This document shows positions 4,067-29,501 of a stretch of DNA of 32,000 nucleotides, one piece after another. The stretch's first letter is position 1, and every line of letters begins with the position of its first letter. Source of the stretch: Nostoc punctiforme PCC 73102 (lineage in GTDB: Bacteria; Cyanobacteriota; Cyanobacteriia; Cyanobacteriales; Nostocaceae); contig NC_010628.1 of assembly GCF_000020025.1 (NCBI RefSeq), positions 5,310,001 to 5,342,000 of the forward strand, read 5' to 3'. Both the position numbers and the translations under genes were made by a program. Below the pieces are notes generated by a model. It was not told the origin of the DNA. It did no database searches and saw only the letters and a program-made list of their open reading frames with translations.

Positions 4067-4086
4067 TATTTTATACCTCTATTTTT

Positions 4087-9932: not shown

Positions 9933-9984
9933 TAGAAACGCACCGCAGAGGCGCACAGATCACAGAGAGAAGAGAGGAAATTGA

Positions 9985-11079
9985 ATGAGTCGGCGGTTAT
10001 TAGTTACTGGGGGTGCGGGGTTTATTGGGGCGAATTTTGTCCATCACTGGTGTCAGGTTTATCCAGATGACCGTGTGGTGGTGTTGGATGCGCTTACATA
10101 CGCGGGGAATCGTCTGAATTTGGCGGTGGTTGAGGGAAGAGAGAATTTTCGGTTTGTGCAGGGGGATATTTGCGATCGCACCATTGTAGACAACCTATTA
10201 TCAACCGAAAATATAGATACTATCGCCCATTTTGCTGCTGAATCTCATGTCGATCGTTCGATTCTTGGGCCGGCGGCTTTTGTGCAAACTAATGTGGTGG
10301 GAACTTTCACGCTGCTGGAAGCTTTTCGCCAATATTGGGAGGCTAAAGCACAGCCATCTGATTATCGTTTCCTACACGTTTCGACTGATGAAGTCTACGG
10401 TAGTTTGGGCCCAGATGATGCAGCTTTTTCGGAAACTACACCTTATGCTCCTAATAGTCCTTATTCAGCTTCCAAAGCTGGTAGCGATCACTTAGTGCGT
10501 GCTTATTATCATACTTATAAACTTCCTACCATTATTACAAATTGCTCTAATAATTACGGGCCTTATCAATTCCCCGAAAAGCTAATTCCCCTGATGTGTA
10601 TCAACACTTTAATAGGTAAACCATTACCTGTTTATGGCGATGGGAAAAATGTGCGGGATTGGCTTTATGTGGTCGATCATTGTCGTGCTTTGGATGTGGT
10701 AATCAATCATGGTCAACCAGGGGAAACCTACAATATTGGTGGCAACAATGAGGTGGAAAATCTCAACCTGGTGCAGCTTTTGTGTCAGATGATGGATGAA
10801 TTAGCATCTGATTTACCAGTACGTCCAGCAAAGGAGTTGATTACTTTTGTCAAGGATAGACAGGGACACGATCGGAGATATGCAATTAATGCGAACAAAA
10901 TTAAAACTCAGCTTGGTTGGACACCTTCTGTAACGATTGCTGAGGGTTTACGTTTAACAGTTGAATGGTATCTCAATCATCGTGATTGGTGGGAACCTCT
11001 GCTGTCTGCGGAATATCAAGCTTACTATCGCAAAAATTATCTCATTCCCACAATTTCTCTAGATAATGACTATCCTTGA
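9985..11079 (+). CDS. rfbB: dTDP-glucose 4,6-dehydratase
   Basis: 364-aa ORF with Rossmann GGAGFIGANF, catalytic YSASKAGSDH (YxxxK), STDEVYG and NCSNNYGPYQFPEKLIP, all diagnostic for RmlB/RfbB. Confidence 0.95.
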   Translation: MSRRLLVTGGAGFIGANFVHHWCQVYPDDRVVVLDALTYAGNRLNLAVVEGRENFRFVQGDICDRTIVDNLLSTENIDTIAHFAAESHVDRSILGPAAFVQTNVVGTFTLLEAFRQYWEAKAQPSDYRFLHVSTDEVYGSLGPDDAAFSETTPYAPNSPYSASKAGSDHLVRAYYHTYKLPTIITNCSNNYGPYQFPEKLIPLMCINTLIGKPLPVYGDGKNVRDWLYVVDHCRALDVVINHGQPGETYNIGGNNEVENLNLVQLLCQMMDELASDLPVRPAKELITFVKDRQGHDRRYAINANKIKTQLGWTPSVTIAEGLRLTVEWYLNHRDWWEPLLSAEYQAYYRKNYLIPTISLDNDYP

Positions 11080-13868: not shown

Positions 13869-16073
13869 TTAATTAGCAGTAGCCTCAGAAATAACTGTTA
13901 CACAAGCATTGACCAAAGGTAATAACGGCCCTAGTTGCTCTTGTCCATTTACGGCTAAATCGCTGTGACACAAATAAACTCTCTCGGATACACGAGATAG
14001 TAAATCTGTCAAAATCCTCCGCAGTCGTTCTTCTTCTGCCAATTTCTCATCTTCTGCTGTCCAAGGTTCGCCTAACCTGTCTTGCAAGAAAAACGGCGCA
14101 CCAAATAACGTTGCTGCGCCACCTTTGGCCCAAAGAGGCGAACCAGCATCTAGCCAAAAATGCCAACGGTGCGATCGCCTACTAGATCGATATTGAAATA
14201 TAGTTGCTAAGGTGACGGCCTTTCTCGCTCCACCAATAGGGCGTACAGGGTAAGGGTTGGCGGTAATTGTACCACGTCGCAGTAATTGAATAAATTCGAT
14301 AATAGTTGTCTGAGGCGTTGTCTCAACTGGGGCAATTTGTCGTAACCTGGTGTCAATTTCCCAGTAGTGTTGGGCGGTTTCTAATAATTCTCGCAGTGCT
14401 GCTAACTGTTCGTAGGGGAGATTGCTACCATTCCACAAGAAGCGCTGAATTGCTCTGTCTAAGAGGGAAATGGGACTGGGAATTAACCGCAGTTCTTGTT
14501 GCGATCGCTGCTGTTCTAACCACTCTAATATCTCATTGTAGGCTGTAGTAGCCGCATAGCCAATTCTATCCCAGCGCTCGAAGGCTGACACTGGTAGCAA
14601 GTTGGGGCGATCGGGATGGGGTACAAAGCAGTAATCTGCTATCAAACCAGCGCGTACCGGATCAATATCTGTAGAGACGCGATTAATCGCGTCTCTACTA
14701 TAAATGCGATTCATCACGTCTGTAGAGTTTTCTGGTGGTTGTTGCTTTCTACTCAATACAACTAGCATTTCTGCCACGGCATCCCGATCCACGAGGCGGC
14801 CCAAGCCGGGATAAACTAGTGCCAGTATGGTGAGTAAGGCGCGAATGACGGGTGAACTAATTAGGGGACGTTGGTCATTGAGCGATTCTACCTGGATGTT
14901 TTGCTTGACGAGGATTTCTACTAAAGTATAACGAGCGATCGCATCTAAACCTGGTGCAATAATCGCTACTTCTTCTGCTTGTACTTGCTGCGATTGGATA
15001 GCATCAGCAATTACCTCTGCTGTTTGTCGCAGTAGTTGAGCGCGGGAGGTAGTTTGAATGGAATGTACAATCTCAGGTAAACTCACCAACACCATTGGTT
15101 CTGTGACTAATTCCACCATCTGTTTAGCTTGTTCTCCCAAAGACTCTGGAGGCGGCTCGCTTAAGATTTCTACCCGACAACGCTTTGCTAACCCTTCTAG
15201 ATATTTGGGGTCTGCTCCTAATCCCAATCGCACTGCACCGTCGGGATTGTAGCTAAACGCGCCGATCGCGCCTCGATCTAATAGCAATTCAAACAAAAGA
15301 CGCGCTACGCTAGGATAATCGTCAACATCATCTGCCAATACTGCTTGATAGCGTTTAGTTAGATGCTGTTGGTAGTTGCGATCGCTTAATAAATATTGAC
15401 TATAGAGTTCGGTAATAATGCCATAAGTTAGTAACCCCCTCTCTAAACACCAGTTACGCCAATCAATGAGCAAAGATGCCAAAAATTCCGGCTCTAAAGT
15501 TGTAGTATTCTCCCCCAGACCCCTTGTCAAAATCTGGGCAATATCTTCGCAATGTACACCACTGTAAGCAGCTAATTGCAATAAGTCTAAAATGCGACGC
15601 ACCAAGCGCGACTCATTCACCCCCGCAACTTGTAAAATTTCTTCGTCTAATTGGGAACGCCAGAGTTTGGTTGCTAACTCTTGTTCCGTTTCTGGTCGCA
15701 ACCTTACCGGAAACTGGGCCTTCAGGTTCAATGAGTTAATTAGCAACGGCCAAAATAAAATAACTTCATCCTGGAAAAAGCCTAGCGGTGTCTTGGCACG
15801 TACCGGATATTTTCCTAATGTGGATGTAACAATTATATCACCCAACTCTCGGCGATTATCATCGTTAGCAGCTAAGACTAAAACTCCTGGCTCTGTTTGT
15901 TTAAGATATAAAAATTCGGGTATGCGAACGCCTTTTTTACGTGCTTCCTTCTTAGTATAAAATAATTCAGTATGCTGCTTCTCTGGTTGTACCCAACTAC
16001 AAAATTGCTCTACCAAGCGAGCCGTCTTACCAGTGCGACTAGTGCCAACAATCCAAACCGAATGAGAAACCAC
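13869..16073 (-). CDS. P-loop NTPase, superfamily-1 helicase / AddB-like protein
   Basis: 734-aa ORF. N-terminal Walker A VGTSRTGKT within residues 9-17, an acidic box AVLADDVDDY resembling SF1 motif II, and overall length and layout like UvrD/AddB-type proteins. I could not identify a clear nuclease motif or Cys cluster. Confidence 0.45.
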   Translation of the reverse strand: MVSHSVWIVGTSRTGKTARLVEQFCSWVQPEKQHTELFYTKKEARKKGVRIPEFLYLKQTEPGVLVLAANDDNRRELGDIIVTSTLGKYPVRAKTPLGFFQDEVILFWPLLINSLNLKAQFPVRLRPETEQELATKLWRSQLDEEILQVAGVNESRLVRRILDLLQLAAYSGVHCEDIAQILTRGLGENTTTLEPEFLASLLIDWRNWCLERGLLTYGIITELYSQYLLSDRNYQQHLTKRYQAVLADDVDDYPSVARLLFELLLDRGAIGAFSYNPDGAVRLGLGADPKYLEGLAKRCRVEILSEPPPESLGEQAKQMVELVTEPMVLVSLPEIVHSIQTTSRAQLLRQTAEVIADAIQSQQVQAEEVAIIAPGLDAIARYTLVEILVKQNIQVESLNDQRPLISSPVIRALLTILALVYPGLGRLVDRDAVAEMLVVLSRKQQPPENSTDVMNRIYSRDAINRVSTDIDPVRAGLIADYCFVPHPDRPNLLPVSAFERWDRIGYAATTAYNEILEWLEQQRSQQELRLIPSPISLLDRAIQRFLWNGSNLPYEQLAALRELLETAQHYWEIDTRLRQIAPVETTPQTTIIEFIQLLRRGTITANPYPVRPIGGARKAVTLATIFQYRSSRRSHRWHFWLDAGSPLWAKGGAATLFGAPFFLQDRLGEPWTAEDEKLAEEERLRRILTDLLSRVSERVYLCHSDLAVNGQEQLGPLLPLVNACVTVISEATAN

Positions 16074-16160
16074 AAACTTTCTCCTTGTAGATTTGCTAAT
16101 ATACCTCGTGGGTTAATTTAAGGTTAAGAATCACCAAATAATGCTGGATGATTGTTTCCA

Positions 16161-17507
16161 ATGAAAAATTCTGTTTTTAGCCAAAAAATCTATTCTTTTT
16201 TACTTGCTGCTTATCGATGGTACTTACAGACTCCTGAACGTTCTTTACATGAAGCTTACGATGCAGCATTAAAGATTAAGGAAATAGAAGATAAGCATTT
16301 TAGTGGTAATAAAATAGACATTGACTCAGCCACGTACAGTAACAGCGTGATGGATTATTTTGAGTCAGACCTCAACAAGCTTTTAAAAATTGCTAAGATG
16401 CGACTGACAGAGTTTAGAGCAAGCCGTTGGTTTTTAAATGAAGAAAATCAAAAAGCTGCTCAAAAAGCTGGTATAGAACATCCCAGTCCTTCTTTGGTTT
16501 TGGAAAAGCTAAACTTTATCGATCAAGTTATATCCAAATACACAATAAGTTCAGATCAAATAACTTCTAACGCTTTAGCAGTCAAACCTCCAAATCTACC
16601 AATTAACTCTGCCATATCTGATGACAAATTTCTGCTCGTCAATACTCCAACATTACCACCCAAAATACCAACTCAAGACTCAGAGAAAAAATCAAAACCA
16701 AAGGGTAAAGTAGATACAACAGGCGTTCTACCCCGTTCTATTTTAAGTACTATCACTCGTCTGCAAGTTGAATTAGATCCTAATTCTGAAAAAGAAGTAA
16801 TTCAGAATTTTCGTCAAACTCAAAGAAGAACAATAATATCTATCAGGTTTATTTTACTATTAATTATCATACCACTTTTGACGCATCAGATAGCAAAAGC
16901 TTTTGTCGTCGGGCCATCTGTTGAGCATTTTAGAAGTAGCGATCAGATGCAGATATTTATCAACTCAGAAATGGAAGAAGAAGCTCTTGAAGAATTAGAA
17001 AGATTTGAAGAAAAACTCAAGTTTGAAAATCTCATTATAAATGCTCCTCCACTGTCACCTGAACAGATGGAAGCTAAAATGACAGACAAGGCTGTAGAGC
17101 TTGCTAAAGAATTTCGTCAAGAAAGCTCTAATGCGATCAAAAATGTTTTTGCAGATATGTTCTCAGTTGGTGCTTTTATCTGGCTTTTGCTTGTTAGCAA
17201 GTCTTCTATTGCTGTAGTTAAAGATTTCTTTGATAATATTGTCTATGGACTTAGTGACAGTGCCAAGGCATTTATTATCATTTTGTTTACCGATATATTT
17301 GTCGGTTTCCACTCTCCTCACGGCTGGGAAGTACTCCTAGAAGGTGTATCGCGTCATTGGGGATTACCAGCAAATCGAGATTTTATTTTCTTGTTTATTG
17401 CGACATTTCCAGTGATTTTAGATACTATTTTCAAATATTGGATATTCCGATATTTGAACCGGATATCGCCTTCGGCAGTTGCCACTTATCGTAATATGAA
17501 TGAATAA
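16161..17507 (+). CDS. pxcA: proton extrusion protein PxcA (CemA family)
   Basis: The C-terminal ~230 aa match CemA/PxcA (FILLLIIIPLLTHQ..., FHSPHGWEVLLE, HWGLP, FIATFPVILDTIFKYWIFRYLNRISPSAVATYRNMNE). The long cyanobacterial N-terminal extension is present. The track starts at TTG 16152; the first ATG is at 16161. Confidence 0.8.
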   Translation: MKNSVFSQKIYSFLLAAYRWYLQTPERSLHEAYDAALKIKEIEDKHFSGNKIDIDSATYSNSVMDYFESDLNKLLKIAKMRLTEFRASRWFLNEENQKAAQKAGIEHPSPSLVLEKLNFIDQVISKYTISSDQITSNALAVKPPNLPINSAISDDKFLLVNTPTLPPKIPTQDSEKKSKPKGKVDTTGVLPRSILSTITRLQVELDPNSEKEVIQNFRQTQRRTIISIRFILLLIIIPLLTHQIAKAFVVGPSVEHFRSSDQMQIFINSEMEEEALEELERFEEKLKFENLIINAPPLSPEQMEAKMTDKAVELAKEFRQESSNAIKNVFADMFSVGAFIWLLLVSKSSIAVVKDFFDNIVYGLSDSAKAFIIILFTDIFVGFHSPHGWEVLLEGVSRHWGLPANRDFIFLFIATFPVILDTIFKYWIFRYLNRISPSAVATYRNMNE

Positions 17508-17585
17508 TGTATTGGGAATTGGGAACTAAATTATTTGGTTTTTGAATTTGAGCTAAGTAGGATAATATGAAAAACTTGAATTTTG

Positions 17586-18857
17586 ATGAAAAAGGCACTT
17601 GCTGGGTTAGGAAAGTTTAACAAAGTTAGCGCTATCAGCTTACCTGTAGTTTTGTCAATTTTCCTGGTGCGGATGCAATCTTTGGTGCATCAAGAACTCA
17701 GTCCGCCAGAATGTCGGTTGAAAAAGTGGGATATACCAGTTTCCTTGACTGGTGAAAATCAAAAAGCACCATTAATTCAGAGACTACCAGTTACTTGTTG
17801 TCAAGGTGATACATCTTGCTTGGATGAACTTCTTTATGGAGAAATACCAGACAAAAAGGCGCTATTGAGTGCGATCGCTCGGAGTCTCCAATACTTGCAA
17901 ACGGCTAATGCTGCGGCTGCTTATCAAAACTATCCAGTGGCGGGGATTACACGCGATCGCGTCTTCAAAAGCTTGAAAAGATTCCGCGAACTTGTCTTGA
18001 CAACTCATTCTGCAACAGAATTACATCAAGCCATCGAGCGAGAATTTGTTCTTTACCAGTCAGTCGGTAAAGACACTAAAGGTTCTGTTTTATTCACCGC
18101 CTATTATGAACCGATTTACGCAGCTAGTCGCGTCCCCACACCAGAATATCGCTATCCTGTTTATCGATTACCTCCTGATTTAAACTCCTGGCCTAAACCT
18201 CATCCGACACGAGAAGATTTAGAAGGAGCAGATGGTTTACAAGGCGCAAAAGGAAAATTACGAGGATTAGAGTTGTTTTGGTTTCGCTCACGCCTCGAAC
18301 CATATCTAGCTCAAATTGAAGGTTCAGCACGACTTCAGCTTCCCAATGGGACTCAGACTGCGATCGGCTATGCCGGTAATAATGCTTATAACTACACAAG
18401 TCTGGGTCGAGAATTAGCGAATGATGGCAAATTATCGCTACAAGGTATGACTATGCCAATTATTCTCGACTATTTTCAAAAGCATCCCCAAGAATTAAAT
18501 ATCTATATTCCGCGCGATCGCAGTTTTGTTTTTTTTCAAGAAAATCACGGTGAACCAGCTCAAGGTTCGATCAACGTACCCCTAACAGCAGAGCGTTCCA
18601 TCGCTACAGATAAATCTCTTATGCCTCCTGGTGCTTTAGCGTTGATTCGCGCTTCTATTCCTTTCGCTAATCCTACCGGAAAACTGGAGGAGCATATCGT
18701 TAGCCGCTATGTTCTTGACCAAGATACTGGCGGCGCAATTAAAGGTGCAGGTAGGGTAGATTATTTTTTAGGTACTGGTAAATTAGCAGGCGATCGCGCT
18801 GGTATCACAGTCAGTAATGGACAATTATTTTATCTACTACTCAAGTCCAAGAATTAA
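17586..18857 (+). CDS. mltA: membrane-bound lytic murein transglycosylase A (MltA family)
   Basis: 424-aa ORF. MltA-domain motifs (YYEPIY, EGSARLQLPNG) and a C-terminal 3D domain (DTGGAIKGAGRVDYFLGTG). The track starts at TTG 17583; the adjacent ATG is at 17586. Confidence 0.8.
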   Translation: MKKALAGLGKFNKVSAISLPVVLSIFLVRMQSLVHQELSPPECRLKKWDIPVSLTGENQKAPLIQRLPVTCCQGDTSCLDELLYGEIPDKKALLSAIARSLQYLQTANAAAAYQNYPVAGITRDRVFKSLKRFRELVLTTHSATELHQAIEREFVLYQSVGKDTKGSVLFTAYYEPIYAASRVPTPEYRYPVYRLPPDLNSWPKPHPTREDLEGADGLQGAKGKLRGLELFWFRSRLEPYLAQIEGSARLQLPNGTQTAIGYAGNNAYNYTSLGRELANDGKLSLQGMTMPIILDYFQKHPQELNIYIPRDRSFVFFQENHGEPAQGSINVPLTAERSIATDKSLMPPGALALIRASIPFANPTGKLEEHIVSRYVLDQDTGGAIKGAGRVDYFLGTGKLAGDRAGITVSNGQLFYLLLKSKN

Positions 18858-18876
18858 ACCTACTCGCATTTTCATA

Positions 18877-18917
18877 CTAAGAATCCCAACTTTTCTAAAA
18901 AAAGCCGGGATTCTTAG
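18877..18917. terminator. bidirectional stem-loop between convergent mltA and the 77-aa gene
   Basis: ctaagaatccc (18877-18887) / gggattcttag (18907-18917), an 11-bp perfect stem extendable by aactttt/aaaagcc with 2 mismatches. An A/T run lies in the loop region. Confidence 0.45.
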
Positions 18918-18968
18918 CCTTTCGGCGTAAATAAAATATACATTCCAAATTAATGAAACGCTTGGGGT

Positions 18969-18989
18969 AATTACGAATTACGAATTACG
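18969..18989. repeat. tandem heptamer AATTACG x3 overlapping the stop codon of the 77-aa gene
   Basis: aattacgaattacgaattacg read directly. The stop (tta, 18985-18987 on +) lies inside the third unit. Confidence 0.7.
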
Positions 18990-19218
18990 CTTCTATATCC
19001 ATATCACCATCATCATCATCATGATCGTAAGGAATATCATCAAGGTCGATCATTTCTGAAATTTCTTCTACTTCAGTTAGATACTCAGATTCTTGATGTT
19101 CACGCTCGATTAGACGACCAGTTGACTTTAGCCATTCCAAAAGAATAAACTCATTGCTTGTACGAATTACAGGCGCTCGTTGGTTACGAGGTTCTTCACG
19201 CAAAGGACTGATAGGCAT
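18985..19218 (-). CDS. small acidic cyanobacterial protein (DUF3134-like)
   Basis: 77-aa ORF, MPISPLREEPRNQRAPVIRTSNEFILLEWLKSTGRLI..., with a highly acidic tail (DHDDDDGDMDIEA). The N-terminal LREEPR...LL.WL..TGRL pattern resembles DUF3134 as I remember it. Confidence 0.45.
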   Translation of the reverse strand: MPISPLREEPRNQRAPVIRTSNEFILLEWLKSTGRLIEREHQESEYLTEVEEISEMIDLDDIPYDHDDDDGDMDIEA

Positions 19219-19421
19219 AAAAAAGACTCACTTTGAATTATGGATCACTGTACAAAAACAAGAAAATTGTACATTTAAGGTTAAAAGGCTCGTTAGGCAA
19301 GACTTTTATGAACAAATAAAATATGAACTATTGAGTTTTTTATTCTCTTGTCCGTCTACTTACTTACCATTAAAATGTCTTTGCGTCAGCCTTAATCATA
19401 AATCTTAAAGCGGACACAATC

Positions 19422-19850
19422 TCACAAAGCATTTGGTACCTTGCCGAGAGTTTCATACATATCAGGGGGTAATGCAGACAATCTGTTTGCTACAGCGACT
19501 GCATCAGCTAAATTGCTAAATTGGCACCGGACAATCTCTTGTCCATTTCCTGAAGGAAATCGCTTTCTAGCTTTGTTAGATACAGCACAAATAATCGCTA
19601 AAGCTTTGGCGAACCCATCTTTTGTTAAGATTGTTTCCTGAGCGAACCCTTCAACAGGGATAAGACAAACCTCAAACCGATAGCCAGGTCTGGGAGAAAC
19701 GGCTATATCGATATAAGGTTTATCTTCTTTTCTGATTCTGCGTAAATATTTGGCTGTGGAATTAGTATCGTGCAAATCAGTCCCAAGGGCGTAAGTAAAG
19801 AAACAATCTTCTGTGAGTGACTCAGGACGGGTAATTATATCCGTTGGCAT
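19422..19850 (-). CDS. hypothetical protein (orphan, 142 aa)
   Basis: Uninterrupted ORF with an ATG start and no recognisable motifs. It sits at the transition from HIP1-rich to HIP1-poor DNA. Confidence 0.5.
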   Translation of the reverse strand: MPTDIITRPESLTEDCFFTYALGTDLHDTNSTAKYLRRIRKEDKPYIDIAVSPRPGYRFEVCLIPVEGFAQETILTKDGFAKALAIICAVSNKARKRFPSGNGQEIVRCQFSNLADAVAVANRLSALPPDMYETLGKVPNAL

Positions 19851-20481
19851 AAGTTTAAGTACTACTATCCGTATGTATCTGGGTTTGTGACACAGTAAAC
19901 TTGTCCGTTCTTTTTAGCACATTTTTTGAAAGTGAGAAGTATTAGTTTTACGCCAGGTATTGCAATACAGTTCTACTCACTAAAAATTTCAATTTTTGCA
20001 ATCCTTAAAGACTCTCATCTTTAAAAGATGAATTTGCAATATAAACTGGCAAAAAACACCTCCAGAAGCAAAGTTTGTAGAGATTTAGATTCGGAGAGGT
20101 GTCCACATAGTCAGTTACATGACCGAAAATATTTCTCAACTATTCTATCATAACATAGTTGACGGTTGAACTTTTTCAACTATGTCTGACCCATAGATGC
20201 AAGGTCAACAACAGCATTAAGTTGTATTCAATTCCGATTTTTAGATAATTAAAGACACAGAGGGTGAATAGTTAGTGCGATCGCATCATCTTATAAAGTA
20301 AGGTGGGCACTGCTTTTAGTTCACTAAAATTTTTATTTTTAGCTTCTCCTCAGTCCCCAACCCCAGATGCTACTATGCAAAAAGGTCAAAGGCGAACAAG
20401 CCAAAGTAGTTGTGAGATTCATCCATTGGCAATCCCAAGACTACCTTGTTCATCTTTTTTGGTAGTTATAAACTTCTCAAA

Positions 20482-23400
20482 TTAGGAGGGAACACTCAAA
20501 TTAACTCGCACAATAACATCGTTAAAATCTTTGTCACCTCCACCAGCTAAATCCTCAAAGCCAAAGGTGTTATTCCCTAACAGACGAATATGATCTACCT
20601 TGTCGCTATTAGCACCCAAGAATGGGAAGTAAACTGCTGGATCATTATTAGGATTGCTATCTAAAACAGCATCTGGTCTGCCATTAATGATAATGAATGG
20701 TGCAAAGATAGAACCAGGCTCAAAAGTGCCTGTATAACTTGCCGTACCTTGGTTGTTCACCGTCAGGTCAATTCCTGCAACGCGTTGACGTAGTGCGGCT
20801 TCAGTATAACCAGCTTGGCCAACAAGAATATCTCCCTTACCATCGCCGTTGGTATCAATACCACCATTTTCATCAGCTACTTTATAAAATCCGACGAAAT
20901 TATTAAATGCAGCTTCTCGGTTGATTGCAAAATTAGCAGTTACCTGTTGTTCAACATCTCTTAAGTCAATTAATTCTCCTTGTGGTTGACCTTGTAGATT
21001 TGTACCCAAAGGTAACGCCTCAGTTGTAGGCTGAATTCTTACGACTAGATTCTGGAAATCATTAGTGCTATTACCAGAACCATCTTTCCAAGCCAAGGAG
21101 AACGCATTGTTATCTAAACTCGTAATTTTTTGATTTGAAGGATCAGAAAACAGTACGTCAGTGATTGGTGTAATATTAGTCAGCACATTATCAGTTGTAC
21201 TATTTTTGACTAAATAAAATCTCAGGTTAGTATCAGATGGTAACTCTAATGAAGCATTGAGAAGATTGTTGCTAAAACCATTGGGTGGATTAGCAATAGC
21301 TGAAAGAATTACCTGTCCTCTTTCTAAAGCTTTGCGGGCATAACCTGCTTCGCCCGGAGCAATACCGTCAATTTCGCCTGTAGCATCATCAACAGTATAT
21401 ACACCAAATTCATTCACCAGACTAGAATTACTGCCTGCGATCGCAACTTGCAGTGTTACCGTATCATTCTCACCTTTGATATTAAAGACATCATTACCAC
21501 TATTTGTAAGTTCTGGAGATTGTGGTTCAGGTTCAGGTTGTGGTTTTGGAGTACCAAAGATAACATAGGTTTGCCCAGCCCCAGGTGCGCCCACAAGCAA
21601 GTCATCAGCACCATCATTATTGATATCGCCAGCAGCGCTAACAGAAGTAGCAGAAGAATCAGTAGCATTAATACCGTTGATGGCAAAGCCCTGACTGGAG
21701 TCAAGGTTGGAAAGGTCGAGACTTTCACTAAAGCCGTTACTGCTGCCAAATACTACATAGCTTTGCCCAGCACCAGCTAAGGCAAAAGGTGCGCCAATAA
21801 TCAGGTCAGCAATGTCATCATCGTTGACATCTCCAGCCGCGCTAACTGAGTAGCCTGAGACATCATTGCCATTAATGCCTTTGATAGTAAAGCCGTTGCT
21901 GCCGTTGAGGTCTGAGAGGTTGAGACTTTCACTAAAGCCGCTACTGCTGCCAAACACCACATAGCTCTGTCCTGCACCAGAAGCGGTGTTGTATGCACCA
22001 ATGATTAAATCGTCGATGTCATCATTATTAACGTCTCCAGCATTACTGACTGAGGCACCAAAAAAGTCATTAGCATTGCCATTAATGACAAAACCGTTGC
22101 TGCCATTGAGACTAGACAGGTCGAAGTTCGCACTAAAGGCAGTAGTGCTGCCAAAAACCACGTAGCTCTTTCCAGTCCCTTGTGCGCCAATAATTAGGTC
22201 GCCAATGCCATCACGGTTAACGTCCCCAGCGCTGCTAACTGAGTTGCCTGATGAGTCGGTGCTGTTGCCATTGATGGCAAAGCCATTGCTGCCGTTAAGA
22301 TCTGAGAGGTTGAGGCTAGCACTAAATGCACTACTACTACCAAATACTACGTAGCTCTGCCCTCCACCTGAAACGGCACTGGGTGCGCCAATAATTAGGT
22401 CGTCAATGTTGTCGCCGTTGATGTCTCCGGCATTACTAACTGATGTGCCTGATGAGTCTGAGATGCCATCTGAGTTGCGCCCATTAATACCGTTAATGAC
22501 AAAGCCGTTGCTCCCATCCAATGATGAGAGGTCGAGGTTAGCATTGAAGCTGTTACGGCTGCCAAATACTATATAGCTCTGCCCTGCACCCAAAGCTGCA
22601 CCTGATGCACCGATAATTAGGTCGCCGATGCCGTCATTGTTAATATCCCCAGCATTGCTAACTGATGTGCCTGATGAGTCACTACTACTGCCGTTGATGG
22701 TAAAGCCGTTGCTGCCATTGAGGTCTGAGAGGTTGAGGCTGGTATTAAAGCCGTTGGTGCTGCCAAATACTACGTAGCTTTTTCCAGCACCAGGTGCGCC
22801 AATAATTAAATCGTCGATGTTGTCGCCGTTGATGTCTCCGGCATTACTGACTGAGTTACCTGATGAGTCACTAGCATTGCCGTTGAGGGTAAAGCCGTTG
22901 CTGCCGTTGAGGTCTGAGAGGTTGAATATAACTTGTGGTTGTGGTTGTGGTTCAGGTTCAGGTTGTGGTTTTGGAGTACCAAAGATAACATAGGTTTGCC
23001 CAGCCCCAGGTGCGCCCACAAGCAAGTCATCAGCACCATCATTATTGATATCGCCAGCAGCGCTAACAGAAGTAGCAGAAGAATCAGTAGCATTAATACC
23101 GTTGATGGCAAAGCCCTGACTGGAGTCAAGGTTGGAAAGGTCGAGACTTTCACTAAAGCCGTTACTGCTGCCAAATACTACATAGCTTTGCCCAGCACCA
23201 GCTAAGGCAAAAGGTGCGCCAATAATCAGGTCAGCAATGTCATCATCGTTGACATCTCCAGCCGCGCTAACTGAGTAGCCTGAGACATCATTGCCATTAA
23301 TGCCTTTGATAGTAAAGCCGTTGCTGCCGTTGAGGTCTGAGAGGTTGAGACTTTCACTAAAGCCGCTACTGCTGCCAAACACCACATAGCTCTGTCCTGC

Positions 23401-25794
23401 ACCAGAAGCGGTGTTGTATGCACCAATGATTAAATCGTCGATGTCATCATTATTAACGTCTCCAGCATTACTGACTGAGGCACCAAAAAAGTCATTAGCA
23501 TTGCCATTAATGACAAAACCGTTGCTGCCATTGAGACTAGACAGGTCGAAGTTCGCACTAAAGGCAGTAGTGCTGCCAAAAACCACGTAGCTCTTTCCAG
23601 TCCCTTGTGCGCCAATAATTAGGTCGCCAATGCCATCACGGTTAACGTCCCCAGCGCTGCTAACTGAGTTGCCTGATGAGTCGGTGCTGTTGCCATTGAT
23701 GGCAAAGCCATTGCTGCCGTTAAGATCTGAGAGGTTGAGGCTAGCACTAAATGCACTACTACTACCAAATACTACGTAGCTCTGCCCTCCACCTGAAACG
23801 GCACTGGGTGCGCCAATAATTAGGTCGTCAATGTTGTCGCCGTTGATGTCTCCGGCATTACTAACTGATGTGCCTGATGAGTCTGAGATGCCATCTGAGT
23901 TGCGCCCATTAATACCGTTAATGACAAAGCCGTTGCTCCCATCCAATGATGAGAGGTCGAGGTTAGCATTGAAGCTGTTACGGCTGCCAAATACTATATA
24001 GCTCTGCCCTGCACCCAAAGCTGCACCTGATGCACCGATAATTAGGTCGCCGATGCCGTCATTGTTAATATCCCCAGCATTGCTAACTGATGTGCCTGAT
24101 GAGTCACTACTACTGCCGTTGATGGTAAAGCCGTTGCTGCCATTGAGGTCTGAGAGGTTGAGGCTGGTATTAAAGCCGTTGGTGCTGCCAAATACTACGT
24201 AGCTTTTTCCAGCACCAGGTGCGCCAATAATTAAATCGTCGATGTTGTCGCCGTTGATGTCTCCGGCATTACTGACTGAGTTACCTGATGAGTCACTAGC
24301 ATTGCCGTTGAGGGTAAAGCCGTTGCTGCCGTTGAGGTCTGAGAGGTTGAATATAACTTGTGGTTGTGGTTGTGGTTCAGGTTCAGGTTCAGGTTGTGGT
24401 TTTGGAGTACCAAAGATAACATAGGTTTGCCCAGCACCAGGTGCGCCCACAAGCAAGTCGTCAGCACCATCATTGTTAATATCGCCAGCAGCACTAACAG
24501 AAGTAGCAGAGGAATCAGTAGCATTAATACCGTTGATGGCAAAGCCCTGACTAGGGTCAAGGTTGGAGAGGTCGAGACTTTCACTAAAGCCGTTACTGCT
24601 GCCAAATACTACATAGCTTTGCCCAGCACCAGCTAAGGCAAAAGGTGCGCCAATAATCAGGTCAGCAATGTCATCATCGTTGACATCTCCAGCCGCGCTA
24701 ACTGAGTAGCCTGAGACATCATTGCCATTAATGCCTTTGATAGTAAAGCCGTTGCTGCCGTTGAGGTCTGAGAGGTTGAGACTTTCACTAAAGCCGCTAC
24801 TGCTGCCAAACACCACATAGCTCTGTCCTGCACCAGAAGCGGTGTTGTATGCACCAATGATTAAATCGTCGATGTCATCATTATTAACGTCTCCAGCATT
24901 ACTGACTGAGGCACCAAAAAAGTCATTAGCATTGCCATTAATGACAAAACCGTTGCTGCCATTGAGACTAGACAGGTCGAAGTTCGCACTAAAGGCAGTA
25001 GTGCTGCCAAAAACCACGTAGCTCTTTCCAGTCCCTTGTGCGCCAATAATTAGGTCGCCAATGCCATCACGGTTAACGTCCCCAGCGCTGCTAACTGAGT
25101 TGCCTGATGAGTCGGTGCTGTTGCCATTGATGGCAAAGCCATTGCTGCCGTTAAGATCTGAGAGGTTGAGGCTAGCACTAAATGCACTACTACTACCAAA
25201 TACTACGTAGCTCTGCCCTCCACCTGAAACGGCACTGGGTGCGCCAATAATTAGGTCGTCAATGTTGTCGCCGTTGATGTCTCCGGCATTACTAACTGAT
25301 GTGCCTGATGAGTCTGAGATGCCATCTGAGTTGCGCCCATTAATACCGTTAATGACAAAGCCGTTGCTCCCATCCAATGATGAGAGGTCGAGGTTAGCAT
25401 TGAAGCTGTTACGGCTGCCAAATACTATATAGCTCTGCCCTGCACCCAAAGCTGCACCTGATGCACCGATAATTAGGTCGCCGATGCCGTCATTGTTAAT
25501 ATCCCCAGCATTGCTAACTGATGTGCCTGATGAGTCACTACTACTGCCGTTGATGGTAAAGCCGTTGCTGCCATTGAGGTCTGAGAGGTTGAGGCTGGTA
25601 TTAAAGCCGTTGGTGCTGCCAAATACTACGTAGCTTTTTCCAGCACCAGGTGCGCCAATAATTAAATCGTCGATGTTGTCGCCGTTGATGTCTCCGGCAT
25701 TACTGACTGAGTTACCTGATGAGTCACTAGCATTGCCGTTGAGGGTAAAGCCGTTGTTACCATCTAGGGACGATAGGTTGAATATATCAGCCAT
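20482..25794 (-). CDS. giant FG-GAP repeat protein: three tandem seven-blade propeller units plus two C-terminal DUF4114-like domains
   Basis: 1770-aa ORF with 21 repeats of GF.ING....G.SVS.AGD(I/V)N.D..DDL(I/L)(I/V)GA....G.SYV(V/I)FG (FG-GAP with DxNxDxxxD loops). (PQ/PE)n linkers join the units. The C-terminus has AWKDGSGNSTNDFQNLVVRIQP and FGFEDLAGGGDKDFNDVIVRVNL (DUF4114-type ends). Confidence 0.85.
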   Translation of the reverse strand: MADIFNLSSLDGNNGFTLNGNASDSSGNSVSNAGDINGDNIDDLIIGAPGAGKSYVVFGSTNGFNTSLNLSDLNGSNGFTINGSSSDSSGTSVSNAGDINNDGIGDLIIGASGAALGAGQSYIVFGSRNSFNANLDLSSLDGSNGFVINGINGRNSDGISDSSGTSVSNAGDINGDNIDDLIIGAPSAVSGGGQSYVVFGSSSAFSASLNLSDLNGSNGFAINGNSTDSSGNSVSSAGDVNRDGIGDLIIGAQGTGKSYVVFGSTTAFSANFDLSSLNGSNGFVINGNANDFFGASVSNAGDVNNDDIDDLIIGAYNTASGAGQSYVVFGSSSGFSESLNLSDLNGSNGFTIKGINGNDVSGYSVSAAGDVNDDDIADLIIGAPFALAGAGQSYVVFGSSNGFSESLDLSNLDPSQGFAINGINATDSSATSVSAAGDINNDGADDLLVGAPGAGQTYVIFGTPKPQPEPEPEPQPQPQVIFNLSDLNGSNGFTLNGNASDSSGNSVSNAGDINGDNIDDLIIGAPGAGKSYVVFGSTNGFNTSLNLSDLNGSNGFTINGSSSDSSGTSVSNAGDINNDGIGDLIIGASGAALGAGQSYIVFGSRNSFNANLDLSSLDGSNGFVINGINGRNSDGISDSSGTSVSNAGDINGDNIDDLIIGAPSAVSGGGQSYVVFGSSSAFSASLNLSDLNGSNGFAINGNSTDSSGNSVSSAGDVNRDGIGDLIIGAQGTGKSYVVFGSTTAFSANFDLSSLNGSNGFVINGNANDFFGASVSNAGDVNNDDIDDLIIGAYNTASGAGQSYVVFGSSSGFSESLNLSDLNGSNGFTIKGINGNDVSGYSVSAAGDVNDDDIADLIIGAPFALAGAGQSYVVFGSSNGFSESLDLSNLDSSQGFAINGINATDSSATSVSAAGDINNDGADDLLVGAPGAGQTYVIFGTPKPQPEPEPQPQPQVIFNLSDLNGSNGFTLNGNASDSSGNSVSNAGDINGDNIDDLIIGAPGAGKSYVVFGSTNGFNTSLNLSDLNGSNGFTINGSSSDSSGTSVSNAGDINNDGIGDLIIGASGAALGAGQSYIVFGSRNSFNANLDLSSLDGSNGFVINGINGRNSDGISDSSGTSVSNAGDINGDNIDDLIIGAPSAVSGGGQSYVVFGSSSAFSASLNLSDLNGSNGFAINGNSTDSSGNSVSSAGDVNRDGIGDLIIGAQGTGKSYVVFGSTTAFSANFDLSSLNGSNGFVINGNANDFFGASVSNAGDVNNDDIDDLIIGAYNTASGAGQSYVVFGSSSGFSESLNLSDLNGSNGFTIKGINGNDVSGYSVSAAGDVNDDDIADLIIGAPFALAGAGQSYVVFGSSNGFSESLDLSNLDSSQGFAINGINATDSSATSVSAAGDINNDGADDLLVGAPGAGQTYVIFGTPKPQPEPEPQSPELTNSGNDVFNIKGENDTVTLQVAIAGSNSSLVNEFGVYTVDDATGEIDGIAPGEAGYARKALERGQVILSAIANPPNGFSNNLLNASLELPSDTNLRFYLVKNSTTDNVLTNITPITDVLFSDPSNQKITSLDNNAFSLAWKDGSGNSTNDFQNLVVRIQPTTEALPLGTNLQGQPQGELIDLRDVEQQVTANFAINREAAFNNFVGFYKVADENGGIDTNGDGKGDILVGQAGYTEAALRQRVAGIDLTVNNQGTASYTGTFEPGSIFAPFIIINGRPDAVLDSNPNNDPAVYFPFLGANSDKVDHIRLLGNNTFGFEDLAGGGDKDFNDVIVRVNLSVPS
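21520..25755. repeat. 3 x ~1.43-kb near-identical tandem direct repeat inside the FG-GAP gene
   Basis: Periods are 1425 bp and 1431 bp (e.g. 21521 vs 22946; track ORFs 21801/23226/24657 and 22005/23430/24861 have identical alternative-frame translations). The only differences I found cluster at 24436-24568, plus a 6-bp indel in the linker. Confidence 0.9.
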
Positions 25795-25949
25795 GATTTT
25801 CTCGTATGTTTTTTATTAGCAATTGATGTAGATGTAAAATTTTTAAACAAATCACATTAGCATTAGTTAAAATCTAGGTTAAGTGAATTAATTGAAAACA
25901 TTTTGTATTTTTATGACATTCAAATAAATTCCTATTTTTTATAGGAACC

Positions 25950-25990: not shown

Positions 25991-26170
25991 ATTTTTCTTA
26001 CATGAAACTAATGATTCATAAAAGTACCAACAGAATTAACTGTTGAACTTTCTGGCAGGCGGCTAGTACTTAGTAAGGATTTTGGTGCTTAAGAAATAAC
26101 TAAAGTCCTTACTACAAACTTGTTTACCTATTAAAGTTGGTGTGGTCAAGTACTAGGCAGATTTATCAAC

Positions 26171-27634
26171 TTAAGGGGTGCAAGGAGAAGCACCAGTGGT
26201 GGTGTTTACGCAAGTATTCACAACAGTTCTAGCCACTGTTTTGATCGTATTGGGAAGAGGAGCATATCCTCGATTTATAGCTATCTGATCTGGAGTGGGG
26301 TTGGAGGAATTGGTAGCGGGAGGAACTGGCTGTGTTGAATTTGCTAAAGCCCAGTTAATGAAGGTTCTAATATGAGTTGCTATCAAATTGCCTGTGGTAC
26401 TGTTTTGGTATACGTCATAAAACAGCGCATAAGTTGCTGCGGAAATTGGATAGGCAGTTGCAGCATTTGGATCGGCCAAGTTATCAATTCTAATCAGCCT
26501 GTTAGAAGGAGCAGTACCATATTTCACGATGGTTCCAACACTCAAAGCGCCTTGAATTCCAGCTGTTGTAGGACCAACGTATACATTTGCTTTGTTCTGT
26601 AAAAGTGCAGCAGGTAGACTTCTAGCTAAACGTGTAGCACTATCTACATAACCAATTGCACCATTATTGGCTGAGATTGCAGTGGCTACACCTCCACCTC
26701 CTGAAGCAGATAGGAAGGTGGTTGGCCAAACAACTGTGTTTGCTGGTGGTGTTGGAGGTACTGTACCTGAAGTACTTATGCTACCAACTCCTTTATCCCA
26801 TATATTAGCTGCTTGAATAGTTGAAGTCGCAGCAGTCTTACATACAGTATTGAGATGAGTGCTTAAAACAAAGGTACTACCACTATTGTCACTACGACGT
26901 ACAACTTTGATGGGTAAATTGACTGCAATGACTGCGCCGCCATTATCTGTTCTAATTCTGGAATCATTCCAATTTGTGATGGTGCCTTTCAAAATACCAC
27001 AGTAAGTATTTCGGGAAAGCTTCAGTCCGGCTGCTGGTATGCTAAGACCAGTACGGTTGTAAGATAACGTGATTCCAACACCTACTACAGGCACTTGAAT
27101 AGCCTTTCCGCTATTAGGTTTTCCAGTACCGATGGTGACTGTTTGTTCTATTTGTGTTCCTGCTAAAGGGTCGTCAGTAGCTGCAAACGAGACTGGGGCT
27201 AAAATGGTAGGGCCTGGTGATGCTAGTGGTACGGTTTGATTGAAAAAAGCTGCTATGCCTGCGCCGCTACCAACCGAAGCATATCTGAATGTGTCGTTAT
27301 TAACGACTGGGCCATAAGTTCCAACTGGGCAACTATTGGTGATTGCAGCTAAATCAGCATTGAGAGATGGAGGATTTCCAACGCCGAAAACGTTAAACCA
27401 TGAGCCTTTTGAACCAAAAGGACATGGATTCGTCTCTCCAGTACCTACAAACAAAGTATTTACAGTGCTTGCACCTAGACCATTTATGGAGGTTACTCCA
27501 GCTGGGGGAGGAGTAGTGGAAGTCTGAGCTAGAGATTTCTGAGTAGCTGATTGAGCAGCTAATAAACCAATTGTGATGGCAAGTACAGAAATTGAACTTG
27601 TCAAATTACTTAGGCGATCGCGGTAGAAAACCAT
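26171..27634 (-). CDS. PstS-family (phosphate-binding-protein-like) periplasmic substrate-binding protein, oversized and orphan
   Basis: PstS-type motifs YASVGSGAGIAAF, FAATDDPL, LSRNTYCGILKGTITNWND, VVRRSDNSGSTFVLSTHL, GAIGYVD, AYPISAATYALFY. Signal peptide MVFYRDRLSNLTSSISVLAITIGLLAAQSA. The track starts at TTG 27649, but ATG 27634 is preceded by AAGGAG at 6-nt spacing. Confidence 0.65.
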   Translation of the reverse strand: MVFYRDRLSNLTSSISVLAITIGLLAAQSATQKSLAQTSTTPPPAGVTSINGLGASTVNTLFVGTGETNPCPFGSKGSWFNVFGVGNPPSLNADLAAITNSCPVGTYGPVVNNDTFRYASVGSGAGIAAFFNQTVPLASPGPTILAPVSFAATDDPLAGTQIEQTVTIGTGKPNSGKAIQVPVVGVGITLSYNRTGLSIPAAGLKLSRNTYCGILKGTITNWNDSRIRTDNGGAVIAVNLPIKVVRRSDNSGSTFVLSTHLNTVCKTAATSTIQAANIWDKGVGSISTSGTVPPTPPANTVVWPTTFLSASGGGGVATAISANNGAIGYVDSATRLARSLPAALLQNKANVYVGPTTAGIQGALSVGTIVKYGTAPSNRLIRIDNLADPNAATAYPISAATYALFYDVYQNSTTGNLIATHIRTFINWALANSTQPVPPATNSSNPTPDQIAINRGYAPLPNTIKTVARTVVNTCVNTTTGASPCTP

Positions 27635-27640
27635 GTCAAG

Positions 27641-27646
27641 CTCCTT
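27641..27646 (-). promoter_or_regulatory. Shine-Dalgarno AAGGAG for the PstS-like gene
   Basis: Minus-strand reading ttgAAGGAGcttgacATG. The SD sits inside what the ORF track treats as codons 2-3, which argues for the ATG at 27634 as the true start. Confidence 0.5.
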
Positions 27647-28580
27647 CAAGTTAATTTTTGGGTGTTAACCCTAATAAATCCAAATCAAGTGTCAAACTGG
27701 CAATTATCAATAACCTTCTTTAAGGACAAAAACTGACACTGTAAAAATTATTGACAAATTAAAAGTTTGCACAAAGTGTTTAAGAATGTAGAGATAATTA
27801 AAAGCAAATTTATAAGAATTTTGAGCGTATTTAACTATTGTTAATACGCCAAGTTAAGTAATTTTTGCTAGTCAAAAACTCTACATTCTTAAAGTAAGTT
27901 CGCATAAATAAACATTCATAGCTTTAGTACAAGTAATTGGTTACTAGATACTATGAATTATGCCTTAATTCACATTTTCGGCTTCTTGTAACCTGTTAAA
28001 AAGCTACGTTTATTTTTACCAACTTACTTGTTTCGGATGGCAATTTTATCTTAAATTATGGAAATCACTTTATTTAATTCATATCCACAGCAGTTTGCAC
28101 AAGCTACCGCCAAGGTACAAAGTAAGGAAAGTCATGATTTCACTAATTTTTTGAGAATGCTATGGCTAATAGCTGTTGAAATTTGCCAACGGAATTAACA
28201 GTATAGTGTTAAGGTAAAGTTCAAGTCATGATTACATTATGAAATGATTAAAAAAAGTTAAATGTATTTTTTTAATTTATTCATTGTTTAAAAAGTAAGT
28301 TTTTTTGAGGTTTTTTATTACTCTGTCCAAAGTAAAATCTAATTTTTTCTTGAGGTTATGAATTTGCTTGCATGACTCTTTTAGAGTGTTTAATAATCTA
28401 TTCAATAAAGTATATACATTTTACAAATTAACCATAACCTGTATCAACGAAAATGCGTTGTTTCAGCAATTTATTAGTTGTGTAGGTATAGCCCAACCCA
28501 GGCATCGGAAAAAATAGCTGAAAAATCTAGCTATTATAATCAAAAACTTATAAGTAGGTCGGCATAAAAATTTGTCGTTG

Positions 28581-28670
28581 AGAGAAGGCAGGAGGGAAGA
28601 GAGTTTTTGTCTACTTTGTCTTTCTTTTCTTGCCTTGCTTCTCTTCTCCCCCTGCCCCCCGGCTGCCTTC
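28581..28670. repeat. composite G-rich / C-rich hairpin-forming repeat
   Basis: agagaaggcaggagggaagagag ... cttgccttgcttctcttctccccctgccccccggctgccttc. Same family as the other CTGCCCC-type repeats. It generates the spurious ORF 28463-28672. Confidence 0.6.
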
Positions 28671-28688
28671 AACCAAAAAATTCCTTAA

Positions 28689-28944
28689 CCGAACAGTATT
28701 GGAGCCACTTCTGCTGGTGGCTCATTTAACCACGGAACTACATTCAAGTTAAGTGTTAACGATTTCAGCACTTTGATACATTGCTCAACTTTACGGGAAC
28801 CGTCTTGCCGATAGAGGAACTAATCCAATTGCTAGATTATTCCAGGCAAGCAATGGAAATTTTTTATATAGGCTGACCTTCATAGGTGGCACAAGTAGCT
28901 TTGGCACATTGTTTCGCTTGGCATCACCAGATTTTACGCCTTAG
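28689..28944 (+). pseudogene. decayed fragment of a GloVer-type (choice-of-anchor tandem repeat) protein gene
   Basis: Two frames joined by a frameshift read PNSIGATSAGGSFNHGTTFKLSVNDFSTLIHCSTLRE* and YGNRLADRGTNPIARLFQASNGNFLYRLTFIGGTSSFGTLFRLASPDFTP*. This matches the GloVer repeat pattern (GG....GT(V/L)FKL ... tLh.F ... G..P.a.L.qa.nGnfYGtT..GG....GT(V/L)F(K/R)L). There is no start codon and there are internal stops. Confidence 0.4.
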
Positions 28945-29501
28945 CGGAGCTTAACCGTGTAGGTATCGCTTTAAAATAGCCCTGAACGCTGGCTTTCTGT
29001 TGTGCCTGTAAGCATACTCATAGAAATCCTAAATACAACTCAGCGCTCAAAACTCCGTCTGGAAAAGGAATTCAGATTTGACTCTAGCGATAGTGATTAA
29101 AGAGCGGTATGCTACCAAGGATTATCTCGCATTTCCAATGGATTCCCCAAACTCATAACTTTAAGAAGACTGTGGTAGTTCTGGTTAAAGGGACTTCTAA
29201 ACAAAAAAACATCCAACTATTTATTATGGGATGAGCAAGATGCCCGCCCTACAAGATTGGATAATTTATTTCTTGAAAATCTCAAAGGCTTGAAACCTAG
29301 TCTCTCAAATCATGCATACTTAATTAAATAAGTATTAATGTTTTGTTAACTTAACTTAATATAGGTTTGTGTATAGTATAGGACTTTGCTAGCTATAACT
29401 TTATAATTTGAGGATAAATAAATGTTAGATCATGTAAAATTGTAATGCTTGTAAAATTTGAAACAACCAACACTCATAGTACACCATAGGAAAATTAGCA
29501 A

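Follow-up and report, generated by a model that had tools for sequence, protein, structure and literature searches.

The 32,000-nucleotide stretch of DNA analysed here (the window; positions 5,310,001 to 5,342,000 of contig NC_010628.1) carries on its minus strand an open reading frame (ORF) of 1770 amino acids (aa) rich in FG-GAP repeats, in which three almost identical seven-blade propeller units are followed by a C-terminal tail of two DUF4114-type domains. This FG-GAP gene is genuine, comes from a Nostoc-like cyanobacterium and is an ordinary member of a common family; it represents a new allele with one extra unit in an annotated but uncharacterised Nostoc family. With moderate confidence we read its product as a secreted, glycan-anchored protein that combines three calcium-loaded propellers with a lectin-like tail and whose third unit was acquired recently. 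The family and the serial arrangement of propellers are already known, and current understanding is not overturned. What the locus adds is a documented case in which whole propellers, and not single blades, have been amplified and subjected to gene conversion, with a presumed crossover junction that can be read directly from the DNA.

Self-comparison of the coding DNA gave periods of 1431 and 1425 nucleotides (nt), with unit lengths of 477, 475 and 475 aa. When the units were aligned (ORF nucleotides 0-1431, 1431-2856 and 2856-4281), units 2 and 3 matched without a mismatch across 1,419 nt and first differed where unit 3 enters the tail linker. Unit 1 is equal to both at ORF offsets 38-1225 (1,188 nt) and departs from them in 9 substitutions clustered in blade 7 (offsets 1226-1358), in 2 substitutions and a 6-nt in-frame indel of its linker, and in its first 38 nt around the start codon. 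Near-identity of this extent cannot be chance. The 21 blade copies, spaced 189-222 nt apart in the self-comparison, are 61-89% identical to the reference blade at the DNA level and 50-73% identical within a unit at the protein level, and the blades are therefore far more diverged than the units. A complete DxNxDxxxD calcium motif is present in 21 of 21 blades. The sequence-only reading from which we started had named the two periods, the identity of copies 2 and 3, the clear divergence of the blades and the DxNxDxxxD-type loops, and all four were reproduced. The ATG start is supported by the N-terminal sequence MAD(I/L/P)..NLSSLDG, which is kept in orthologues, while the repeated ORFs in alternative frames inside the gene (21448-21780, 22806-23174, 22933-23205, 24231-24605 and 24358-24636) are side effects of the propeller repeat.

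Pfam FG-GAP (PF01839) matched the protein with E = 4e-129 (419.5 bits, cut-off 22.1) in 21 stretches, seven per unit, in agreement with the proposed succession of three seven-blade units, and one unit alone scored 153.6 bits in 7 stretches; NCBIfam returned for the blades only an uninformative 'XAC2610-related' domain match. For unit 2 (475 aa) an AlphaFold2 model was built from an alignment of 27 homologues, and the predicted structure is a closed propeller of 35 strands (mean pLDDT 91.9, pTM 0.92). The best Foldseek matches of this model in the PDB were integrin-alpha headpiece propellers, aligned over the whole domain with E down to 5e-21, some 520 columns and TM up to 0.69 (normalised to target chains of about 440 aa), and a sequence search of the PDB matched integrin alpha-V at about 1e-9. 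The earlier suggestion that one unit closes as a seven-blade integrin-alpha-like propeller is thus backed by a confident prediction and its structural match, and each unit is likely to be an integrin-type seven-blade propeller, with calcium binding predicted from the motif. Because natural orthologues with one unit and the same tail exist, the unit can be regarded as an autonomous module, and the unit model, these one-unit orthologues and the proline-rich linkers together suggest that blades are not exchanged between units. A true integrin alpha subunit was rejected, as neither thigh or calf domains (Pfam) nor a membrane helix (19-residue hydropathy peak 1.55) were found in the protein.

The units are joined by short Pro/Glu/Gln linkers, which suggest how the third unit may have arisen. 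Linker 1 reads ...CCACAA(CCTGAA)x3 CCACAACCACAACCACAAGTT..., the terminal linker ...CCACAA(CCTGAA)x2 CCACAATCTCCAGAA... and the linker between units 2 and 3 ...CCACAA(CCTGAA)x2 CCACAACCACAACCACAAGTT.... The middle linker equals the terminal linker in its 5' part and linker 1 in its 3' part, which fits unequal crossing-over of these two linkers in a gene with two units, and the product expected from such an exchange (unit 1, linker 1, unit 2, hybrid linker, unit 2, terminal linker, tail) is the order observed. We infer that the hybrid linker is the crossover junction. A crossover inside the body of a unit was rejected, since it predicts a unit-1-type blade 7 in the middle unit together with a CCTGAA x3 linker, and the opposite is observed. 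As no substitution separates units 2 and 3, the duplication appears to be very recent. The ancestral gene would have had two propellers, and gene conversion between them would have maintained their near-identity in every lineage; in the window strain one unequal crossover or replication slip would then have joined the terminal linker to linker 1 and duplicated unit 2 exactly (1,425 bp).

The closest relatives carry fewer units. The three closest proteins (1,296-1,300 aa) have two units each, namely P0001 from JGI 3300055348 (8.33-Mb contig, 97% identical), P0002 (89%) and P0003 from Nostoc sp. KVJ3 (82%, annotated as 'beta strand repeat-containing protein'). Scans based on the tail yielded further two-unit genes in Nostoc sp. 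C117, KVJ20, N. paludosum and one metagenome contig, and one-unit genes in several genomes, for instance at locus L007 (843 aa). The copy-number polymorphism that had been proposed as a check is therefore present, with 1, 2 or 3 units across orthologues. The one-unit gene of L007 is 92% identical to both units of the two-unit gene at L008, which indicates that units are gained or lost between close species. The flanks of the window are mostly 99.1-99.4% identical to the two-unit P0001 locus, and the two strains look conspecific yet differ in unit number. Several short-read contigs of related Nostoc (L005, L006, L009, L021 and L083) break off within the propeller repeats shortly before the tail. 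Units this similar seem to disrupt assemblies as a matter of routine, and unit numbers in draft genomes are therefore unreliable; the copy number reported here is worth checking with long reads.

Comparison of codon-aligned units within and between genomes points to concerted evolution. Units 1 and 2 of the same genome, in two-unit orthologues, are 90.8-99.6% identical in nucleotides (third positions 84-99%), and units of different genomes 74-85%, a figure that leaves aside the near-identical strain pair. Identity along the units is a mosaic, with long tracts of 100% and diverged edges or one diverged end; in KVJ3 the first 60% of the units are about 100% identical and the remainder 77-91%. 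The large excess of within-genome over between-genome identity, together with the mosaic tracts, argues for repeated gene conversion and not for one duplication per lineage. In blade 6 of unit 1 an older version (TTNGFDAINNLSDLGSNGF) is kept in P0001 and P0003, while the window has the unit-2-type sequence; by this evidence blade 6 of unit 1 has been overwritten in the window strain, which shows one conversion more than its close relative with P0001. The sequence-only reading had offered very recent amplification or concerted evolution as alternatives, and in our analysis both apply, the former to the exact duplicate with its hybrid junction and the latter to the contrast within and between genomes.

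At E <= 1e-10 more than 6,000 proteins matched in the homology search. Blade motifs were counted in the best 120 homologues, a sample biased to long proteins since the query has three propellers: 117 of them carry at least 14 motifs, 82 at least 21 and 8 at least 28, exactly seven blades make up 273 of the 341 blade arrays, and many of these proteins have RTX, cadherin or Ig-like domains at their end. Integrin-type propellers of bacteria were reported in 2011 by Chouhan et al. (PMC3192720), who described one calcium site in each blade and 'sometimes two tandem copies'. Two to four serial propellers are a standard layout, and the idea that a string of complete propellers is an unusual architecture had to be abandoned in view of these counts and of the tandem propellers already published. 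The distinctive trait of the orthologue group is instead the similarity between units, as ungapped 300-aa windows compared between units are 96-100% identical in P0001, P0002 and P0003 and at most 87% identical in other homologues.

The tail is probably the most informative part of the protein with regard to function. Pfam DUF4114 (PF13448) matched it in two stretches (E = 2e-24, 88.7 bits, cut-off 27). The same 343-aa tail recurs at the C-terminus of hundreds of Nostocales proteins, behind FG-GAP, cadherin, He_PIG/Ig-like, phytase-like, 5'-nucleotidase, choice-of-anchor I and RTX partners. In this order it is a mobile C-terminal cassette, and Cylindrospermum sp. NIES-4074 is among the genomes with several copies. 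The cassette always sits at the extreme C-terminus, perhaps because it requires a free carboxylate as the lectin LecB does, whose C-terminal carboxylate takes part in binding calcium. The model of the tail (pLDDT 93.8, pTM 0.91) comprises two beta-rich halves that can be aligned with each other, and its only high-probability Foldseek matches were the PA-IIL lectins CV-IIL, LecB and RS-IIL (probability 0.96-1.00, TM 0.57-0.62). With a profile of 52 tails, hhalign aligned tail residues 246-339 to LecB 26-111 (E = 4e-4; LecB query sequence checked against 1our) and placed the tail motif D-x-D-[FY]-N-D on LecB D99-D104, and a profile search of the PDB weakly matched the sponge lectin thrombocorticin via this motif (E = 0.33). 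The tail-numbered residues E320, D321, D327, D329, N331 and D332 of the FEDLAGGGDKDFND motif are invariant in the 52 tail homologues, and 11 residues lie between the motif and the protein end, compared with 10 in LecB. In the first tail domain four of the six motif residues are lost, according to a sequence reading guided by the half-to-half alignment. A DUF4114 domain of Myxococcus PilY1.1 has been related to PA-IIL lectins and implicated in calcium-dependent motility connected with exopolysaccharide (EPS), and colony-level motility is lost when an Asp of the motif is mutated (PMC9109919). The last tail domain probably works like a calcium-dependent sugar-binding module; it resembles PA-IIL/LecB and may work in a similar way, although we do not file it as a PA-IIL member. 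If this is true, the tandem-DUF4114 cassette may be a calcium-dependent glycan anchor of exported proteins, some of them conspicuous in the exoproteomes of symbioses.

The complete protein has a mass of 177 kDa, a pI of 4.05, 0 cysteines and no N-terminal hydrophobic segment; the maximum hydropathy of its N-terminus is 0.16, indicating that a signal peptide is absent. HesF (Alr0267) of Anabaena sp. PCC 7120 is likewise exported efficiently without a recognisable signal and needs the TolC-like HgdD (PMC4390845). Given the acidic, cysteine-free profile, the RTX repeats present in many homologues and the HesF precedent, export without a signal peptide, probably of type I, is most likely. In contact with moss, N. 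punctiforme has an FG-GAP protein that ranks among its most abundant exoproteins (PMC5702739), and FG-GAP proteins rise in Nostoc in contact with rice (PMC9620832). The best reading of the protein is that of a signal-peptide-less, acidic and cysteine-free matrix or adhesion protein anchored to glycans. It would leave the cell most likely by a TolC/HgdD-dependent type I route and fold outside, driven by calcium binding at the 21 blade loops. The lectin tail would hold polysaccharide, either the cell's own sheath or EPS or the glycans of a partner, and the string of propellers would offer a multivalent binding surface whose length is set by copy number. A further-reaching proposal, which we put forward tentatively and consider rather doubtful as a whole, is that recombination, by changing the copy number, rapidly adjusts how long and how multivalent a secreted, lectin-anchored adhesin is, which Nostoc strains would use in filament aggregation or in attaching to plant and moss hosts, with the 21 FG-GAP calcium loops replacing RTX as a folding ratchet for signal-peptide-less export and tandem DUF4114 acting as a general free-C-terminus glycan anchor on many Nostocales exoproteins.

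A number of observations count against the reading of a secreted, glycan-anchored protein with a recently gained third unit. On the side of the tail, the Foldseek E values for the PA-IIL matches are weak (6e-3 to 0.1), the hhalign probability is 34%, and no Pfam PA-IIL match at E <= 0.01 was found in the protein. On the side of secretion, RTX nonapeptide repeats (PF00353) were not found in the protein by Pfam, and type I secretion genes (ABC transporter, membrane fusion protein, TolC) are absent among the window ORFs of at least 100 aa, although such genes are often unlinked in cyanobacteria and missing neighbours are weak evidence. Orthology of the secreted N. punctiforme FG-GAP protein (Npun_R6586) to the window gene is not established, and no N. 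punctiforme PCC 73102 protein is among the best matches of the homology search. With regard to copy number, a three-unit gene was not found in the tail-based scans of species-representative genomes and metagenomes, the exact 1770-aa protein is not on record and the exact hybrid junction was not found in a scan of metagenomes; the number of units rests on the genome assembly, and identical 1.4-kb repeats are prone to misassembly. The array could thus be an assembly artefact, with two units over-expanded or more than three collapsed, and besides the missing record the perfect identity of units 2 and 3 over 1.4 kb, the maximum of two units in the sampled orthologues and the contigs named above that break inside the repeats would speak for it. 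The junction of units 2 and 3, however, has a sequence of its own, a hybrid that keeps the reading frame cleanly and lacks 6 nt relative to linker 1, and a two-unit genome would yield no reads of it. Moreover, the 9 substitutions marking unit 1 anchor the array at both ends, and assemblers usually collapse identical repeats, so that three units, if an error, would more likely be an underestimate. We judge an artefact to be quite unlikely. An old triplication, with identity of the units kept by purifying selection on the protein, has next to no probability in our view. The propellers are indeed highly regular and their structural motifs conserved, but units 2 and 3 have 0 synonymous differences in 473 codons, and selection on the protein cannot preserve synonymous sites. 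Third positions are 84-99% identical within genomes, against an overall nucleotide identity of about 75-85% between genomes, and the closest relatives are two-unit genes.

Two further explanations concern the role of the protein. It could be an intracellular or periplasmic protein without adhesive function, as would agree with the lack of a signal peptide, of RTX repeats and of nearby secretion genes; this we hold to be very unlikely, because its composition is acidic, cysteine-free and rich in calcium-loop repeats, its homologues are full of extracellular RTX, cadherin and Ig-like domains, related FG-GAP proteins occur in exoproteomes and symbiosis proteomes of Nostoc, and HesF shows that export can be efficient without a recognisable signal. 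Alternatively, the protein could belong to a phosphate or calcium economy together with the PstS-like periplasmic binding protein encoded next to it, for instance as an extracellular protein that binds calcium or phosphate minerals or as an exoenzyme scaffold, in which the tail is a generic export or anchor tag. The PstS-like gene is a conserved upstream neighbour, a Nodularia DUF4114 protein belongs to a phosphate-limitation stimulon and is encoded beside phosphatases (PMC9846622), other Nostocales proteins carry the tail together with phytase-like, 5'-nucleotidase and choice-of-anchor I domains, and the FG-GAP protein has 22 acidic calcium motifs. Against this, no Pho-box-like repeats were found upstream of the FG-GAP gene and only one marginal match upstream of the PstS-like gene, the two genes are set apart by a terminator-like hairpin and by a promoter-proximal region with conservation of its own, the neighbour scores 126.9 bits with NCBIfam PstS (cut-off 205), and Pfam found no catalytic domain in the FG-GAP protein. 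With an empty Pho-box scan upstream of the gene, phosphate regulation through the neighbour was set aside as the principal explanation and kept as an alternative that we consider unlikely. We thus retain the secreted matrix or adhesion protein as the preferred reading; the coordinates of its parts and of the adjacent features are listed in Table 1.

Table 1. Features of the FG-GAP locus and its surroundings (positions in the window).
Feature	Coordinates	Strand	Remarks
Whole FG-GAP gene	20482..25794	minus	1770-aa ORF, ATG start; three propeller units and tandem-DUF4114 tail
Propeller unit 1 and linker 1	24364..25794	minus	aa 1-477, seven FG-GAP blades; 9 unit-1-specific substitutions in blade 7
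Propeller unit 2 and hybrid linker 2	22939..24363	minus	aa 478-952, seven blades; unit used for modelling
Propeller unit 3 and terminal linker	21514..22938	minus	aa 953-1427; equal to unit 2 over 1,419 nt
Linker 1, PKPQPEPEPEPQPQPQ	24358..24405	minus	CCTGAA x3, then CCACAA x3
Linker 2, PKPQPEPEPQPQPQ	22933..22974	minus	Hybrid; 5' as terminal linker (CCTGAA x2), 3' as linker 1 (CCACAACCACAAGTT...); putative crossover junction
Terminal linker 3, PKPQPEPEPQSP	21514..21549	minus	Runs into the tail
C-terminal tail	20485..21513	minus	343 aa, two DUF4114-type beta-sandwich domains (predicted), the first with degenerate metal motif
Second DUF4114 domain, PA-IIL/LecB-like	20497..20724	minus	Residues 1691-1766; Pfam, Foldseek, hhalign
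Putative two-calcium and sugar-binding motif FEDLAGGGDKDFND	20518..20559	minus	Role suggested by LecB analogy
Proximal upstream region	25795..25920	minus	Conservation with KVJ3 orthologue despite coding-DNA identity of only ~80-85%
Terminator-like hairpin after upstream gene	26027-26046
PstS-like periplasmic binding protein (PBP_like_2), upstream neighbour	26171..27649	minus	Syntenic in orthologous loci
142-aa ORF, downstream neighbour	19422..19850	minus	Syntenic in L001 and L002

The order of genes in orthologous loci is PstS-like periplasmic binding protein, FG-GAP gene, 142-aa ORF, DUF3134, MltA and CemA. The proximal upstream region of the FG-GAP gene probably contains the gene's own promoter and 5' untranslated region; a scan for promoters and terminators gave no enrichment over shuffled sequences and only the terminator-like hairpin after the upstream gene, and an Rfam scan of the window found no RNA families. 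For the 142-aa ORF no Pfam or NCBIfam match was found, and it could be a functional partner of the FG-GAP gene. Immediately downstream of the FG-GAP gene, 2.9 kb of DNA (17579-20481) are 96.5% identical to L001 11897-14821 (35 substitutions per kb), and the tail is 99.9% identical to L001; the divergence looks local and possibly came about by recombination with another lineage. L001, the locus of the closely related two-unit strain, also carries two RicinB-lectin genes between MltA and CemA (15240-17270), which are absent from the window, where MltA and CemA are adjacent (17507-17583); the two strains thus differ in lectin-type genes here as well. Further along the same side lies a 734-aa ORF with GTG start (13869-16073, minus strand) that matches no Pfam family and has only a sub-threshold RecX-like match in NCBIfam; L001 and L002 each have a homologous gene call at the corresponding position. 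On the other side, the 1.85 kb upstream of the PstS-like gene (27650-29500) contain no ORF of at least 100 aa and are 99.4% identical to L001. A 60-aa remnant at 28759-28938 (63% identity) is probably what is left of a decayed gene; at this position Nostoc sp. KVJ3 has an intact version (L002 3397-4647) of 416 aa whose product looks secreted. Polysaccharide-related genes are also located near the putative fucose/mannose-type lectin tail: a group-1 glycosyltransferase, a GDP-mannose 4,6-dehydratase and a polysaccharide deacetylase are encoded on the plus strand (8937-11079 and 5267-5944), 10-15 kb from the FG-GAP gene. GDP-mannose 4,6-dehydratase catalyses the first step toward GDP-fucose or rhamnose-type sugars.

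The closest known systems include the two-unit Nostoc orthologues, with the same N-terminus, unit structure, linkers, tail, synteny and conversion-tract pattern; they differ in unit number, which is two in P0001, P0002, P0003, C117, KVJ20 and N. paludosum, one in L007 and three in the window. With the bacterial integrin-type propellers (PMC3192720, PF01839) the protein shares seven FG-GAP repeats per domain, one calcium motif per blade, a structure more regular than that of metazoan integrins, tandem whole propellers and the integrin-alpha propeller as best structural match. One or two units were reported in 2011, whereas there are three here, and three or four are now common in databases. Compared with other FG-GAP homologues the units are nearly identical at the DNA level, and most homologues have RTX, cadherin or Ig-like C-terminal parts in place of the DUF4114 tail. 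HesF is similarly a large acidic exoprotein without signal peptide, calcium-dependent and associated with adhesion or aggregation of filaments (export being a prediction in our case); in contrast to HesF and to type I secreted RTX adhesins, the window protein has no RTX nonapeptide repeats and no transporter genes nearby.

The last tail domain has the E-D and D-x-D-[FY]-N-D motif in common with thrombocorticin and the PA-IIL lectins (LecB of Pseudomonas aeruginosa, RS-IIL, CV-IIL, BC2L-A), and as in LecB the chain ends about 10 residues past the motif. The loop from E-D to D-x-D is three residues longer in the tail, and while PA-IIL is a free 114-aa tetrameric lectin, the domain here is fused in tandem to a degenerate copy that precedes it, after a very large N-terminal portion. 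A calcium-type beta-propeller combined with lectin-type domains is also found in the secreted biofilm adhesins Bap1 and RbmC of Vibrio cholerae, which attach an exopolysaccharide matrix to a second surface like 'double-sided tape' (PMC10102183). The modular logic of propeller and lectin is shared, as an analogy for which we claim no homology. Bap1 and RbmC have one propeller per protein and of a different type, with eight blades and an inserted beta-prism. Their propeller binds polysaccharide and the other domains point outward, whereas the reverse or another arrangement seems likely here. With respect to evolution, a parallel is the WRAP domain of Npun_R6612, also a Nostoc propeller protein with near-identical repeats that lack synonymous differences, which Pereira and Lupas read as a very recent amplification (2022, PMC9218822). 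Npun_R6612 amplifies a single blade within one propeller, whereas in the window a complete seven-blade propeller was amplified together with its linker, its blades being 50-73% identical to each other.

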